This document shows positions 2,653-17,712 of a stretch of DNA of 34,673 nt, piece by piece (the first letter of the stretch is position 1; each line of letters begins with the position of its first letter). Below the pieces are notes generated by a model that ran no database searches, had not been told where the DNA came from, and saw only the letters and a program-made list of their open reading frames with translations. Origin of the DNA: a virus (lineage: Duplodnaviria > Heunggongvirae > Uroviricota > Caudoviricetes); the IMG/VR virus record IMGVR_UViG_2917408641_000007. One strand, written 5' to 3'. The position numbers and the translations under genes were made by a program.

Positions 2653-2967
2653 TTAATTTATTTGTATGCCTGTTCTCTCTTCATCGAGTTTTTTTAGCTT
2701 GTATCGCATAGCTCTCACTGAATAAATTGAGCGGCAGGTTGCAATTGCTATTTCTTCTGCGGAGAACTTACCGAAAAGTGATACTTCGGCTCTTGTCCAT
2801 CGTCTTCCACGAAGTCGGCTAACAATGTCAGCGCCAATCCTTGTTGCTTTCGCCATTACTGCTTTTTCAGTCCTTTCCAGTTTTTCAGCGATAACTTCAA
2901 CTGGCATTGTCGCCGCTACCTCGCGCAAGAAATCGACTTCCCATTTCTCCCATGGAGTCTTTTTCAT
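2653..2967 (-). CDS. Hypothetical protein (104 aa)
   Basis: ORF-track ORF in the leftward operon immediately downstream of the Gp157-like gene; family not recognised. Confidence 0.45.
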
Positions 2968-2978
2968 AGTCGATACCG

Positions 2979-3467
2979 TTATTTGATAAGAAGTGAAGGT
3001 TTCCCAACTTTGAGTTGAGCGCCGGGGATATTTATTCCTGCTTTTAGTTGGTGTTTGATTGCCAGTTTGTCGGCTTTAATTGTCGTTTCAAACTCAACGT
3101 ATTCAGGAGGAAGGGCGCTTGAGTCGATGATTTCTACAGTTTCTGACGGTTTGCGGATTGTTACCTGGTGAATACCTGCTCGAATCTTTTTCTTGCCAAC
3201 CATTTCAAGCGATGACGCTATATACGCCATAATGCTATCAATCTTATTTTGAATTACTGCTGCTCGTTCATTCAGTGACTTTGCCTCTTCCTTGAGGCGT
3301 TCAGCATAACCAGACTCATTTTTAATAATGGCAAGAAGTTGCTCTATTTTATCGGTAAATTCTCCTTCCATGCCTTCTATTGTGTCAGCAATCATCTCTG
3401 GTTCTAAATCTGAATCCATCAATTTTGCGTATTCATTGGCAATTTCATACAGTTTGCTCACTGGCAA
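2979..3467 (-). CDS. Gp157-like phage protein (recombination-module accessory; assignment tentative)
   Basis: 162 aa, N-terminus MPVSKLYEIANEYAKLMD, coiled-coil rich; sits directly downstream of recT and overlaps it, as Sipho_Gp157-family genes often do. Confidence 0.4.
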   Translation of the reverse strand: MPVSKLYEIANEYAKLMDSDLEPEMIADTIEGMEGEFTDKIEQLLAIIKNESGYAERLKEEAKSLNERAAVIQNKIDSIMAYIASSLEMVGKKKIRAGIHQVTIRKPSETVEIIDSSALPPEYVEFETTIKADKLAIKHQLKAGINIPGAQLKVGKPSLLIK

Positions 3468-4347
3468 CCTCCAGTTTCGCTTTGCATTCTATGTAAATGG
3501 CTTGTACGTTCTGCTGCAATTTCATTCCAGATGTCAGGCGATATGCTTCTGCAAAATATCGCTTCAAATCATCCATGTTTTCTGCCTGAGCCATTTCATC
3601 ACAAAGAAGTTGTGCTTTATCCGTTATTTCCTGCTGGCGTATCCGTTCATCTTCGCGGATATCTTCCTCTGATTTGTGCGGCATAACTGGTTCCTGATGC
3701 ATACCTTCATCTTCGTTAAGTAGGTGAATGGCATTATCCAGTCGCTGGGCTTTAGGCCAGTATTTGCTGGCGCGTTTAACTATTGTTTTACGCGCCATCT
3801 CTTCCCAGAATGTCTTCCACGGTCCATTCTTTGCCTTGCTCGTTGCTTCCACAGCTTTAATTTCTGCCAGACTCATTTCTTCAGTGAGGTAGTCACCATC
3901 TGCTGTTTTAACCGTACAATAACCACCAACAATAGAGCCTCGCTCACCAAATGCGTTGTATTTGTGGGTTGGTGCTGAATCAAGGCCGTTTGATTCATAG
4001 GTGTCGTTTGAGTACACCAGTTTGCATTGCCCCCACTTAATTGATCCTGTCGACTGTGCAAGGTGAAGTAATCCCATATAGCTGATATCAAGGCAAACCA
4101 TGCCGTCGCGCGGAACCAGATAAGCCAGTTTGCTGGCCGGGTTTAAGGTGATGCCGATCGCCGCAACATTGATGATGGCGTTCTGTGCGCTGGTTGGATT
4201 TGCCAGTGCTGTTTTAGCCAGGTAATCATTTTTCTGGAAATACTGAATTGCAAACTGGCTTTCCTTAGCCCATGTCACCGTCTGTTCAGTCAATGCTCCG
4301 CAGAATAACTGCTCTTGCTGTTTAACGAATTCAACGATATTGCTCAT
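3445..4347 (-). CDS. recT: RecT-family single-strand annealing recombinase
   Basis: 300 aa; central region ...NAIINVAAIGITLNPASKLAYLVPRDG... matches the RecT-family core; position equivalent to lambda bet. Confidence 0.8.
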   Translation of the reverse strand: MSNIVEFVKQQEQLFCGALTEQTVTWAKESQFAIQYFQKNDYLAKTALANPTSAQNAIINVAAIGITLNPASKLAYLVPRDGMVCLDISYMGLLHLAQSTGSIKWGQCKLVYSNDTYESNGLDSAPTHKYNAFGERGSIVGGYCTVKTADGDYLTEEMSLAEIKAVEATSKAKNGPWKTFWEEMARKTIVKRASKYWPKAQRLDNAIHLLNEDEGMHQEPVMPHKSEEDIREDERIRQQEITDKAQLLCDEMAQAENMDDLKRYFAEAYRLTSGMKLQQNVQAIYIECKAKLEVASEQTV

Positions 4348-4982: not shown

Positions 4983-5294
4983 TTAGGCGGCTGATGTTTC
5001 TTCTTTCAGGCTTTCGAGATATTTACGTGGGTCGTCGTAACATTGGCATTCGCTGTACCAATCCACCCAGCGATCAGTAAGCCCCATTTCTGATAAATCT
5101 TCATCGGTAAGGCTCTCATCCCACATCTCAAGGCCGTTAGCATTGCAGTAGTCAGGCTTGATGTTGTTGTCATACTGAAAGGCGTCATAATCAGCCAGTG
5201 CATCCATCAGGCGAACACCCTCTTCAACACTTGCCACTTCTACAATGAACGGCTTCATAGGTACTTGCGGGATATGCCAGACACGTAATTTCAT
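4983..5294 (-). CDS. Hypothetical protein (103 aa)
   Basis: ORF-track ORF with GGAGGAAAT upstream of the ATG; Cys/Trp-rich acidic protein; family not recognised. Confidence 0.5.
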   Translation of the reverse strand: MKLRVWHIPQVPMKPFIVEVASVEEGVRLMDALADYDAFQYDNNIKPDYCNANGLEMWDESLTDEDLSEMGLTDRWVDWYSECQCYDDPRKYLESLKEETSAA

Positions 5295-5481: not shown

Positions 5482-5847
5482 TTACTTAACCAATGATGCT
5501 GCATATTCGATAAGGTAAAGCTTTGGAGCTAGCCAAATTTTCAACCAGTCGAAATAATTGAAGAAAACAACAATAGAAGTAATCGCTATTCCTGATGTGA
5601 CAAGTAGCGATAAAATAACGACATCCGCATCATCTCCTTTATTCCATGCAAAAATCATCAGATAAACACATGCTATAATCACCAATACACAGAGAGCCTG
5701 AATCCCAGCTGATGATACGGCGTGCCACATCAAAAGCTGATGTATGACATCAGGAATCTGTACTTGGCTAAATGAAACAGCCGCATCTATTCCATTGCTG
5801 GCTTTTTGCAGTAGTTCTACGAGAATCTTGTTTGCTTGTTCTTCCAT
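5482..5847 (-). CDS. Small inner-membrane protein (121 aa, two predicted TM helices)
   Basis: Hydrophobic stretches AGIQALCVLVIIACVYLMIFAW and VVILSLLVTSGIAITSIVVFFNYF; start is 8 nt after the N stop with GAGGTGA RBS. Confidence 0.55.
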   Translation of the reverse strand: MEEQANKILVELLQKASNGIDAAVSFSQVQIPDVIHQLLMWHAVSSAGIQALCVLVIIACVYLMIFAWNKGDDADVVILSLLVTSGIAITSIVVFFNYFDWLKIWLAPKLYLIEYAASLVK

Positions 5848-5855
5848 ATCTCACC

Positions 5856-6188
5856 TCAATCGTAATAAGCTGGAATTGATTTTCCGCGTTGCTTCTGGCG
5901 GCCTGAGCAAGTCACACCCATTTCACTGCGTGGCTTGCTGTACCATGTGCGCTGATTCTTGCGCTCAATACGTTGCAGGTTGCTTTCAATCTGTTCGTGG
6001 TATTCAGCCAGCACTGTAAGGTCTATCGGATTCAGTGCGCTTTCTACTCGTGATTTCGGTTTGCGATTCAGCGAGAGAATAGGGCGGTTAACTGGTTTTG
6101 CGCTTACCCCAACCAACAGGGGATTTGCTGCTTTCCATTGAGCCTGTTTCTCTGCGCGACGTTCGCGGCGGCGTGTTTGTGCATCCAT
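5856..6188 (-). CDS. N: Antitermination protein N (lambda-type)
   Basis: From the internal Met of ORF 5856..6320: MDAQTRRRERRAEKQAQWKAANPLLVGVSAKPVNRPILSLNRKPKSRVESALNPIDLTVLAEYH... matches lambda N including the N-terminal arginine-rich motif. Confidence 0.85.
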   Translation of the reverse strand: MDAQTRRRERRAEKQAQWKAANPLLVGVSAKPVNRPILSLNRKPKSRVESALNPIDLTVLAEYHEQIESNLQRIERKNQRTWYSKPRSEMGVTCSGRQKQRGKSIPAYYD

Positions 6189-6422: not shown

Positions 6423-6490
6423 ACAAGAAAGATTGTATATTGTAAACAAGAAATATTGTAAAAATGGGCGTGAAAAACAAACTCCATTGT
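6423..6490 (-). promoter_or_regulatory. OL operator cluster (three 434-type 14-bp sites) with pL
   Basis: ACAAGAAAGATTGT, ACAAGAAATATTGT and ACAAACTCCATTGT fit the 434 operator consensus ACAA-N6-TTGT; located between cI-side genes and nutL/N. Confidence 0.7.
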
Positions 6491-6540
6491 TTTTAAACGG
6501 AAAATAGTTTGTTTTTTGGCTGTCGAAATCGAGGTGAGGA

Positions 6541-7896
<1,356 letters not shown>

Positions 7897-15751: not shown

Positions 15752-15955
15752 ATGTACCGTATGGACAAAATCAGAGAATGGTTCAGTTACAGCTTCGGAG
15801 GACTGACTGCGATGGGTGGCATTCTCTCCCTGAATGACTGGGCTGTCATCATTGGTATTCTTTGTACTGTCGGCACATTTGGCATTAACTGGTACTACAA
15901 GCGCAAAGAGCGCGAGGACAGATTGAATGGCAATGTCACCGGCACTACGAAATAG
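15752..15955 (+). CDS. Small two-TMD holin (pinholin-like), dual-start motif M1-Y-R-M4
   Basis: 67 aa [67 protein letters not shown]; two hydrophobic segments, charged C-terminus, first gene after pR', followed by SAR endolysin. Confidence 0.75.
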
Positions 15956-16430
15956 CGTAATAGCGGCGATAAGTGGCGGGGCTATTGCTATAGCATCTGT
16001 GTTAATCACTGGACCGAGTGGTAACGATGGTCTGGAAGGTGTCAGCTACATACCATACAAAGATATTGTTGGTGTATGGACTGTATGCCACGGACACACC
16101 GGAAAAGACATCATGCTCGGTAAAACGTATACCGAAGCAGAATGCAAAGCCCTCCTGAATAAAGACCTTGCCACGGTCTCCAGACAAATTAACCCGTACA
16201 TCAAAGTCGATATACCGGAAACAACGCGCGGCGCTCTTTACTCGTTCGTCTATAACGTGGGCACAGGCAATTTCAGAACATCGACGCTTCTTCGCAAAAT
16301 AAACCAGGGCGATATCAAGGGCGCATGTGATCAGCTACGGCGCTGGACATACGCTGGCGGTAAGCAATGGAAAGGGCTGATGACCCGTCGTGAGATTGAG
16401 CGTGAAGTCTGTTTGTGGGGGCAACAATGA
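15927..16430 (+). CDS. SAR endolysin (T4-lysozyme-like muramidase with N-terminal signal-anchor-release domain), phage 21 R-like
   Basis: N-terminal SAR segment [17 protein letters not shown] followed by [18 protein letters not shown] (E-D-T catalytic triad pattern); overlaps the holin 3' end. Confidence 0.85.
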
Positions 16431-16522
16431 GCATGATTTGCTTTTTCATGGCAGCGTTGCTCGCATTGAATGGCAACGATGCGTGGCCGTGGTTTCTGGC
16501 CGTTGGGGTGTTGATGTCATGA
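16427..16522 (+). CDS. Possible small hydrophobic peptide (31 aa) between endolysin and Rz
   Basis: ATG overlaps the endolysin stop (ATGA) and its stop overlaps the Rz start (ATGA); product [31 protein letters not shown]. Speculative. Confidence 0.2.
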
Positions 16523-16956
16523 GTCGGTTAACCGCGATTATCTCCGCTCTGGTTATCTGCATCATCGTCTGCCTGTTATGGGCTGTTAATCATTACCGTG
16601 CTAACGCCATGACCTACAAAGAGCAGCGTGATAAAGCCACGTACATCATCGCTGACATGCAGAAGCGTCAACGTGATGTAGCAGAACTCGACGCCAGATA
16701 CACAAAGGAGCTTGCTGATGCTAACGCGACTATCGAAAGTCTCCGTGCTGATGTTTCTGCTGGGCGTAAGCGCCTGCAAGTCGCCGCCACCTGTGCAAAG
16801 TCAACGACCGGAGCCAGCAGCATGGGCGATGGAGAAATCCCAAGACTTACAGCAGATGCTGAACTCAATTATTACCGTCTCCGAAGTGGAATCGACAAGA
16901 TAACCGCGCAGGTTAACTACCTGCAGGAGTACATCAGGACTCAGTGCTTAAAATAA
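16519..16956 (+). CDS. Rz: Rz i-spanin
   Basis: From internal ATG of track ORF 16390..16956: [27 protein letters not shown] (N-terminal TM) followed by coiled-coil periplasmic domain; contains embedded Rz1. Confidence 0.8.
16718..16903 (+). CDS. Rz1: Rz1 o-spanin (outer-membrane lipoprotein), embedded in Rz in the +1 frame
   Basis: [20 protein letters not shown] lipoprotein signal with lipobox then proline-rich [16 protein letters not shown]; AAGGAG RBS 8 nt upstream of ATG (track start 16712 is TTG). Confidence 0.75.
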
Positions 16957-17169: not shown

Positions 17170-17712
17170 ATGAATTATCCAACTATCGTTGACGGCATTG
17201 ATTTCAAAGAACTGGTTTTTATTACCAACAATGACCCTGTCACCGATTCATTTATGGTGGCGAAAGTATTTCGTAAGCGACATGACAACGTTGTGCGTGA
17301 TGTAGAAAGAACTATCGCTGCTTGTCCTGAAGAGTTTGATACAAAACTCAATTTTGAGGTTTGCTATAAAAACAATGAGTTACAGAATGGTAAGCCACAA
17401 AAATTCTATCGGCTACGTAAGGATGGGTTGATGCTTTTGGTTATGTCCTACACCAAAAAAGAAGCAATGCGTATCAAAATTGCTTACATCAACGCATTCA
17501 ACTGGATGTACGCCATGCTTCAGGTTGGTCATCGTCAATTTGAAGAAGAGAGAAATGCCGTAATGCTGGAGTACATGAAAGAGAAGGATGTTGCCAGCAT
17601 GTCAGGTCGCCTGCTCAATCGCTGGGGAAAAATTAAGAAGCCTCAGCTACTGGCGAGAATTGAACGCCTTGAACAGCACGGGCAAACCGTAATCCCCGGA
17701 CTCACTAATTAA
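17170..17712 (+). CDS. rha: Rha-family phage regulatory protein
   Basis: N-terminus ...LVFITNNDPVTDSFMVAKVFRKRHDNVVRDVE matches the Phage_pRha family signature; 180 aa. Confidence 0.6.
   Translation: MNYPTIVDGIDFKELVFITNNDPVTDSFMVAKVFRKRHDNVVRDVERTIAACPEEFDTKLNFEVCYKNNELQNGKPQKFYRLRKDGLMLLVMSYTKKEAMRIKIAYINAFNWMYAMLQVGHRQFEEERNAVMLEYMKEKDVASMSGRLLNRWGKIKKPQLLARIERLEQHGQTVIPGLTN

Follow-up and report, generated by a model that had tools for sequence, protein, structure and literature searches.

The gene, its junction with N and its terminators

The DNA analysed in this study, called the window below, is a stretch of 34,673 nucleotides from IMG/VR virus record IMGVR_UViG_2917408641_000007 (Caudoviricetes). 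Its minus strand carries, directly behind the gene for a lambda-type antiterminator N, a gene for a 121-residue membrane protein. This protein is a small inner-membrane helical hairpin, and its gene is a self-contained, horizontally mobile cassette that sits in the mosaic slot after N. An earlier interpretation made from the letters alone, referred to here as the sequence-only reading, had described a 121-residue gene 8 nucleotides after N with a ribosome-binding site, two hydrophobic helices and a following terminator, and all of these features were present at the locus, as follows:

5482..5847, minus strand: coding sequence of the 121-residue protein with two transmembrane (TM) helices, a member of PHROG 3054; ATG start
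5848..5861, minus strand: N-to-gene junction; the N stop codon TGA lies inside the Shine-Dalgarno sequence GAGGTGA, and the distance from stop codon to ATG is 8 nucleotides (ggtgagat)
5477-5450, minus strand: first intrinsic-terminator-like hairpin and T-run, from the hairpin scan
5334-5305, minus strand: second terminator hairpin (stem 5334-5314) and T7, -14 kcal/mol, just ahead of a homologue of P22 gene 17
6188-5856, minus strand: lambda-type antiterminator N (MDAQTRRRERR...); Pfam N36, E 1.6e-26

The gene had been called coupled to N. The gap of 8 nucleotides makes the two genes close neighbours, but their reading frames do not overlap in the manner of translational coupling. On the minus strand inside N, no sigma-70-like promoter was found by a consensus scan. 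The first hairpin, AGGCCG-CATAGT-CGGCCT followed by TTATTTTT, begins 4 nucleotides past the stop codon of the gene (-12.9 kcal/mol, z -2.8), and an identical 26-nucleotide hairpin trails homologues with differing central regions in 32 loci. In phages 21 and 434, a terminator homologous to the second one is annotated ahead of ea10, and in Sf6 the corresponding terminator is tL2A. Moreover, lambda, 21, 434 and many Stx phages share the DNA downstream of the gene together with this second terminator, and in them it sits between ral or a Nun-like gene and ea10. A weak antisense sigma-70-like site (5530-5558, plus strand; TAGCCA-17-AATAAT, 9/12 matches) lies in the 3' part of the gene and is no better than chance.

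Membership of the Sf6 gene 34 family

The open reading frame (ORF) is almost certainly a real gene of the Sf6 gene 34 family (PHROG 3054, function unknown). Residues 1-121 were aligned with positions 1-137 of the 137-position PHROG 3054 profile at an E-value of 1.1e-45 (156.6 bits), and the profile was also matched by 67/67 diverse relatives tested. The sequence-only reading could not assign a family; this has been improved to PHROG 3054, which is itself without known function. Homologues formed 544 clusters at 90% identity in a collection of 5.8 billion proteins, and an exhaustive search with a profile built from 58 family members returned the representatives of 4,760 clusters at 50% identity with E<=1e-3, of which 1,974 had E<=1e-10. 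No Pfam family matched the query, and the 67 relatives gave only scattered sub-threshold Pfam matches that reflect TM composition; the best NCBIfam match to the query had an E-value of 0.93.

Comparison with the Pectobacterium and Serratia homologues was carried to the codon level. In the last 22 codons, the same amino acid was specified at 20 positions, 11-12 of them with synonymous changes, and in the first 44 codons 33-34 amino acids were conserved, with 20-21 synonymous changes. This pattern indicates that the two termini (residues 1-46 and 98-121) are under purifying selection. The idea that the conserved gene ends are mere recombination boundaries, maintained at the DNA level, was considered and rejected, because the amino acids have been retained through numerous synonymous changes.

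The sequence is not new, since database proteins with 96-100% identity exist, and the family is catalogued but uncharacterised. A protein identical to the query is already present in IMG/VR (locus L011), and identity reached 96-97% with the proteins of HK633, N7 and SPN9CC type and about 54-60% with the alleles of Sf6 and CUS-3. Among 5,426 complete Escherichia coli genomes, this allele was found in 43 for 80% or more of its length and at least the conserved ends in 220, so that some allele is present in about 4% of them; all of these copies are annotated as 'hypothetical protein'. In phage HK633 (JQ086377; locus L001, 3036-3401), an intact 121-residue homologue with 96.7% identity was recovered. 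The GenBank record of this phage covers only the last 59 codons of the homologue (HK633_044) together with an overlapping ORF in another frame (HK633_045, 2726-3115), and this pair of entries is likely a mis-annotation.

Architecture and conservation of the protein

The Kyte-Doolittle profile (19-residue window) exceeded 1.6 over residues 38-72 approximately (peak 2.75) and 74-99 (peak 2.53), and it delimited two TM helices (residues 47-68 and 75-97, approximately) with the loop WNKGDDAD between them. AlphaFold, given the family alignment, placed helices at residues 3-70, 74-97 and 100-120; the local confidence score (pLDDT) was 81-90 over residues 41-100, which makes the hairpin confident, and 46-65 at the termini, where the model is not confident. 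Conservation was expressed as the mean frequency of the commonest residue (top-residue frequency) over 147 representatives of 50%-identity clusters, and it divides the gene into the following segments, all on the minus strand:

5710..5847, codons 1-46: N-terminal helical segment, MNEQANKIL..LLQKA..GIDAAVSFSQAQIPDVIHQLL.W; top-residue frequency 0.60
5644..5709, codons 47-68: TM1, hydrophobicity kept and sequence hypervariable; top-residue frequency 0.28
5626..5643, codons 69-74 (about): connecting loop NKGDDA; top-residue frequency 0.19
5557..5625, codons 75-97 (about): TM2, hypervariable sequence; top-residue frequency 0.20
5485..5556, codons 98-121: nearly invariant C-terminal segment (N.DWLKIWLAPKLYLIEYAASLVK); top-residue frequency 0.75

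In a 67-member alignment, whose members are 31-55% identical overall, F26, P32, A107, P108 and K109 were invariant. The query fits the family plan, in which an N-terminal segment ending in ..QIPDVI.QLL.W is followed by two TM helices and the C-terminal motif WLKIW.APK.YLIEYAA. The C-terminal 24 residues are hydrophobic as well as conserved, with a mean Eisenberg hydrophobicity of 0.36-0.41. The loop ranges from 8 to 67 residues in the family, with an average of about 27, and the query has the shortest type (8). Furthermore, loop modules recur among 375 sequences, ...GE.WTRY...TS..YD... being found in 24 and ...PT(L/M)..D..GD... in 10. These data revealed that the family consists of two constrained terminal segments, which necessarily lie on the same side of the membrane, carried on a freely diverging, cassette-swapped hairpin.

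Membrane topology

The distribution of lysine and arginine (K/R) was counted in 249 family members. The mean number of K/R was 0.36 in the 15 residues that precede TM1 and 3.05 in the 15 that follow; at TM1 the loop side was the richer in K/R in 237/249 proteins, and positive-inside counting predicted the loop to be inside, which corresponds to N-out/C-out, in 205/249. Moreover, the N-terminal segment has an acidic character and few K/R, their density being 0.052 against 0.154 in the loop. In gp18 of Pseudomonas phage Bjorn, a signal-peptide-like extension (MFDLWLKGAVRWLAVAGLCLFIFCLYSALNDASA, followed by AD) precedes the conserved N domain and lies behind a good AAGGA ribosome-binding site, which fits a periplasmic N domain; the other N-terminal extensions in the family look like mis-called starts. 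Topology prediction had been proposed as a check on the sequence-only reading; the two TM helices were recovered by both the Kyte-Doolittle profile and AlphaFold, but the orientation is ambiguous for short-loop alleles. The N-out/C-out topology is slightly favoured overall.

Genomic contexts in temperate and lytic phages

The 8-nucleotide N junction of the window recurs in other phages and leads there into various genes: in phage 434 (OL657226; locus L092, 1603-2472) into the gene for a 290-residue 'Nun C-terminal peptide-containing protein', in Sf6 into gene 36, in HK633 into HK633_045 and in HF4s into a 149-residue homologue of the 121-residue protein. The presence of different genes behind one fixed junction implies that the N-proximal slot exchanges whole cassettes. 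The proposal that the gene is an accessory one in a variable N-proximal slot agrees well with these different cassettes and with the many unrelated positions at which homologues were located. A census of the upstream neighbour on the same strand in 117 dereplicated IMG/VR loci gave the following distribution:

N-type antiterminator: 19/117 loci, with a gap of 8 nucleotides in 9
ral: 12/117 loci, with a gap of 58-59 nucleotides
HK633_045-like gene: 6/117 loci
Rz i-spanin: 5/117 loci, always with an ATGA stop/start overlap and after holin and endolysin
Sf6 gene 36-like gene: 2/117 loci
other genes: 66/117 loci
no neighbour within 400 nucleotides: 7/117 loci

The five Rz cases (loci L136, L138, L162, L168 and L174) share the order holin or holins, endolysin, Rz and then the homologue, whose start codon overlaps the Rz stop codon. 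In a Serratia prophage, the homologue lies between a lysis cassette with a KilA-N gene and the terminase, and in Pectobacterium and other prophages it occupies the second, third or fourth place behind N. In Enterobacter prophages, a lone homologue in reverse orientation is situated between terminase and portal and is bracketed by hairpins, an arrangement that is that of a textbook moron. Upstream of the reversed homologue, two of these prophages (L100, 3244-4000; L101, 3296-4000) have about 700-750 nucleotides without a convincing ORF, possibly the site of a regulatory RNA or the remains of a gene; in L100 a strong hairpin terminator (3964-3980) stands 20 nucleotides before the start codon of the homologue. 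When the neighbours in 60 diverse loci were clustered, no conserved partner gene was found, and the sole recurrent functional neighbour beyond genes of the pL operon was the Rz/endolysin pair, in 5 loci. It is thus very probable that the gene is a mobile accessory cassette rather than a partner specific to N or a prophage gene of the sieB type.

The family is also kept in obligately lytic phages. The whole phi92-like group carries it (gp220, beside an AAA ATPase gene), in N4-like Ithacavirus and relatives such as FSL SP-058 it lies just after the genes for the RNA polymerase 2 (RNAP2) subunits, dozens of Vibrio phages including Nahant have it beside DUF2800 genes, and homologues occur in Pseudomonas phage Bjorn and Rheinheimera phage Barba. 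In the lytic N4-like, phi92-like, Vibrio and jumbo phages, the homologue is situated in early regions. The Ralstonia jumbo phage RsoM2USA (L096) has three tandem paralogues (2169-2648, 2896-3360 and 3373-3903) of 159, 154 and 176 residues, which differ in their hairpins and loops and have longer N-terminal extensions. In Rheinheimera phage Barba31A (L099, 2444-5348), the homologue lies two genes upstream of genes for a macro-domain protein, ribose-phosphate pyrophosphokinase and nicotinate phosphoribosyltransferase, a group that looks like an NAD-salvage or counter-defence cluster.

Searches against exclusion, killing and defence proteins

The sequence-only reading had suggested a sieB-type or otherwise defence-related gene and had proposed comparison with the sieB and kil families; BLASTP and hhalign disclosed no relation to either, and a sieB-type, kil-type or defence identity is left unsupported. 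Lambda SieB gave no BLASTP alignment at E<=100 and an hhalign probability of 0.2%, and P22 SieB gave the same probability and no BLASTP similarity. The hhalign probabilities were 0.09% for P22 SieA, 0.22% for lambda RexB, 0.14% for T4 Imm and 0.08% for the 47-residue lambda Kil peptide. In PADLOC-DB v2 nothing significant was matched; two generic '2TM effector' models reached E-values of 0.053 and 0.094, which is compatible with hydrophobic composition alone. Foldseek of the AlphaFold model against BFVD and the PDB, together with a search of the family profile against PDB sequences, found only a family member, that of Pseudomonas phage Bjorn, and the fold search was uninformative because a bare helical hairpin is too simple to discriminate. 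A sieB-type or kil-type identity was accordingly rejected: there is no homology, the gene stands on the sense strand 8 nucleotides behind N, and no promoter-like site was seen there. The precedent of sieB near N, to which the sequence-only reading had appealed, is valid as a matter of position only: in lambda and P22, sieB runs antisense to N from a promoter of its own.

The phage and its immunity region

The window represents a P22-like (Lederbergvirus-type) phage or prophage whose closest relatives are the Escherichia phages Huey, phiv205-1, Kapi1 and CUS-3 and the Shigella phage Sf6; it is an Sf6/CUS-3-like P22-like phage with 434 immunity. The genes cI (6942-7574, minus strand) and cro (about 7680-7896, plus strand) encode proteins that we take to be the 434 repressor and Cro. 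Operators of the form ACAA-N6-TTGT had 5 matches in the window against 0.79 expected by chance, and they define oL (6423-6490) and oR (7632-7667). The remaining features around the gene are as follows:

6423-6490: oL over pL, three 434-type operators (ACAA-N6-TTGT), from the operator scan and the 434 annotation
6362-6348, minus strand: nutL boxB hairpin GCCCTGAAGAAGGGC, from sequence and hairpin detection
6541-7017, minus strand: hex-like gene between cI and oL, probable start at an internal Met at 6945, 99% identical (132/134 residues) to phage 434 Hex
4983-5294, minus strand: homologue of P22 gene 17, the next gene past both terminators; Pfam GP17, E 7e-56
15752-16956, plus strand: lysis cassette with a 67-residue holin (15752-15955), a 167-residue endolysin, Rz (ending YIRTQCLK) and an embedded Rz1 lipoprotein ORF (16712-16903)

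The hairpin GCCCTGAAGAAGGGC has the sequence of lambda nutL boxB. The P22 record credits gene 17 with permitting growth on Fels-2 lysogens, a counter-exclusion function. Hex is annotated in the 434 record as guarding the repressor from RecA-dependent proteolysis. The hex product of the window starts with a signal-peptide-like segment, which is odd for a cytoplasmic role in protecting the repressor, and it also corresponds to Sf6 gene 38 / PHROG 2651 (function unknown). Between the hex stop codon and oL3 (6491-6540, minus strand), no hairpin terminator is visible, and transcripts from pRM (cI-hex) may in principle continue into the pL region, N and the 121-residue gene in a lysogen. The endolysin of the window has an N-terminal hydrophobic segment resembling a signal-anchor-release (SAR) domain, and a Rha/antirepressor-like ORF lies downstream of the lysis cassette at 17170-17712. 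An Rfam scan of the whole window gave no matches.

Proposed function and alternatives

The anatomy of the region suggests that the gene is co-transcribed with N from the cI-repressed promoter pL. Since the first terminator-like hairpin comes only after the gene, antitermination would be preceded by two immediate-early products, N and the 121-residue protein, encoded together on a pL transcript of about 1 kb. The 12S RNA of lambda is comparable to such a transcript. In a lysogen, the gene would be repressed by cI, because three 434-type operators lie over pL. The pattern of conservation suggests that the working parts are the two nearly invariant termini, which must share one side of the membrane, probably the periplasmic one with more uncertainty for the short-loop allele, while the TM hairpin and its loop would serve as a freely drifting, cassette-swapped anchor. 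That Vibrio phages and Ralstonia phages have kept such similar termini speaks for a host target in the envelope that is itself conserved, or for self-assembly, and a low-confidence guess is that the termini engage a conserved envelope component of proteobacterial hosts. The envelope of the infected or lysogenised cell might thereby be altered, which would protect it from secondary infection or from envelope-directed attack.

Protection acting at the envelope, in the form of T4 Imm-like superinfection exclusion or of a guard against membrane-triggered death and not of SieB-type abortive infection, is put forward tentatively and by analogy. It covers all of the contexts best, because the gene is found in prophage morons, immediate-early operons and lytic phages, and its neighbours are exclusion or counter-exclusion genes; the neighbours and alternatives in the slot are the Nun-like protein of 434, ral, P22 gene 17 and, on the opposite strand, sieB. 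A wider and more speculative version would be an 'envelope guard' common to many phages, in which the invariant terminal helices are shown in the periplasm by a swappable TM hairpin and act on one conserved proteobacterial envelope target. Such a protein would block further DNA entry or membrane-triggered premature death in temperate as well as lytic phages, whether made early, late or from the prophage.

Several observations weigh against envelope protection. The family is without sequence or fold similarity to any known exclusion protein tested. No function has been assigned to it in any experiment or annotation, and the names in the sources are 'hypothetical protein', 'TMhelix containing protein' and 'gene 34 protein'; the source names of ten large clusters and of the neighbours of the phi92 homologue were all 'hypothetical'. 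In the searchable full-text literature, including papers on epsilon34, Sf6 evolution, phage L and an accessory-gene screen, no characterisation of the family was found, the original Sf6 genome paper (J Mol Biol 2004) being outside that scope. The short-loop class, to which the query allele belongs, is ambiguous in topology, 14 of its 23 members favouring the opposite orientation, and among 380 family members checked, Bjorn gp18 alone has a signal-like extension. In addition, a cytoplasmic loop would keep the variable part of the protein away from incoming phages, and a model of exclusion with specificity residing in the loop is thereby weakened. The five loci coupled to Rz by ATGA in late lysis cassettes fit a role in lysis at least as well as exclusion, and termini so strongly kept across Vibrio and Ralstonia phages would be just as compatible with host takeover or counter-defence.

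The last of these possibilities is that the anchored termini neutralise a conserved host membrane component and thereby aid the lytic development of the phage itself, the candidate targets being a membrane-acting abortive-infection effector, a protease such as FtsH/HflKC, or a translocon or envelope-stress component. We regard such a counter-defence or host-takeover factor as possible at a low level of probability. The gene is early here, with N, and its homologues in lytic N4-like, phi92-like and Vibrio phages also lie in early regions; whole lytic genera have kept it, and in pL operons it stands among anti-restriction and anti-RecBCD genes (ral, abc2, gene 17). The Barba homologue near genes for a macro-domain protein, phosphoribosyl pyrophosphate (PRPP) synthetase and nicotinate phosphoribosyltransferase (NAPRT) is in line with this, as are invariant termini across distant hosts, which suggest a conserved host target. 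However, the reversed, terminator-flanked moron of Enterobacter looks as if it were expressed for the lysogen, late expression coupled to Rz would be atypical, and neither homology to a known anti-defence protein nor any mention in the accessory-gene screen paper that was checked could be found. A role in the timing of lysis, as a membrane modulator of holin or spanin (antiholin-like, membrane stabiliser or guard against premature lysis) and not as the holin itself, is drawn from the five loci in which the homologue follows holin(s), endolysin and Rz with an ATGA overlap, from the Serratia prophage in which it comes just after the lysis cassette, and from the small two-TM hairpin, which resembles class II holins. 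This role is nevertheless unlikely, because only 5/117 contexts adjoin Rz, and in lytic phages, in the window and in other pL operons the gene is an early one, well away from the lysis genes. Moreover, the stretch behind Rz is a known slot for morons, the one occupied by bor in lambda. The window also has its own complete lysis cassette (15752-16956), and the C terminus is hydrophobic and conserved, unlike the charged tail of holins.

The proposal of the sequence-only reading, a sieB-type abortive-infection or exclusion gene that is expressed from the prophage and protects the lysogen, is rather improbable. Its basis is the position, analogous to what lambda and P22 have near N, to which can be added that the Enterobacter moron arrangement suggests prophage expression there and that read-through from pRM may occur in a lysogen, since no hairpin terminator is visible from the hex stop codon to oL. 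Against this, SieB homology is absent (none by BLASTP, 0.2% by hhalign), sieB of lambda and P22 is antisense to pL and has its own promoter whereas the 121-residue gene is in the sense direction with no promoter-like site found, pL lies under three 434 operators, the family is conserved in obligately lytic phages, and the 2TM-effector matches in PADLOC are non-significant (E 0.05-0.09). Least probable is a membrane anchor for DNA replication, recombination or assembly, similar in concept to p1 and p16.7 of phi29. Replication and recombination genes do adjoin the homologue in several phages, among them DUF2800 nuclease-like genes in Vibrio phages, the AAA ATPase gene of phi92 and the Erf/SSB operons of lambdoid phages, but the position of the gene is highly variable and has no conserved partner gene, P22, lambda, 21 and 434 replicate normally although the gene is absent from them, and its occurrence as a moron in late operons does not fit.

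Significance

The family matters more than this single gene, since it comprises at least 4,760 clusters at 50% identity, has no Pfam model and combines invariant termini with a hypervariable hairpin. Its carriers include the model phages Sf6, CUS-3, HK633, phi92 and N4-like phages. As one of the two proteins that would be made before N antitermination, the product would take part in the very first events of infection. Its function, once worked out, would annotate thousands of phage genes together and might reveal a common envelope step exploited by unrelated phages, and the target is tractable because the carriers are phages of E. coli, Shigella and Salmonella. If the 'envelope guard' were true, it would constitute a new and very widespread class of superinfection exclusion or membrane protection, unrelated to Imm, Sp, SieA, SieB and Rex.

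Comparison with known systems

The closest counterparts are the family members themselves. Sf6 gene 34 (AAQ12224), the CUS-3, HK633, N7 and SPN9CC proteins, HF4s_0037 ('TM helix-containing protein') and phi92 gp220 match over the full length and have the same terminal motifs and two-TM plan, and the relatives in Sf6, CUS-3, HK633 and similar phages occupy the same pL-operon neighbourhood. In Sf6, gene 34 comes after ral, whereas the 121-residue gene directly follows N. SieB resembles the protein in being membrane-associated and encoded in the N-proximal region of lambdoid phages; however, SieB of lambda and P22 has 184-192 residues, is antisense to pL, is expressed from its own promoter (annotated in P22) and contains the internal Esc start, whereas the 121-residue gene is on the sense strand, is probably co-transcribed with N and belongs to a family also found in lytic phages. 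T4 Imm is likewise a small, early-expressed phage protein of the inner membrane with two hydrophobic segments that benefits the infected cell, but it has 83 residues and is without the conserved terminal domains of PHROG 3054.

Class II holins and pinholins are also small two-TM hairpins, and some PHROG 3054 homologues end lysis cassettes. In contrast to holin genes, the gene of the window is early, in the pL operon and not beside the endolysin, and a separate holin of the phage is encoded at 15752-15955; furthermore, the short charged C-terminal tail of class II holins differs from the hydrophobic, conserved C terminus and the 46-residue conserved N-terminal domain of the protein. With morons such as lambda bor, HK97 gp15 and P22 sieA, the family shares the character of an independent, mobile gene for an envelope protein placed between conserved modules, sometimes reversed and flanked by terminators. 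It differs from them in having no sequence relation (SieA was compared directly), and the gene in the window, apparently without a promoter of its own, would ride on pL.

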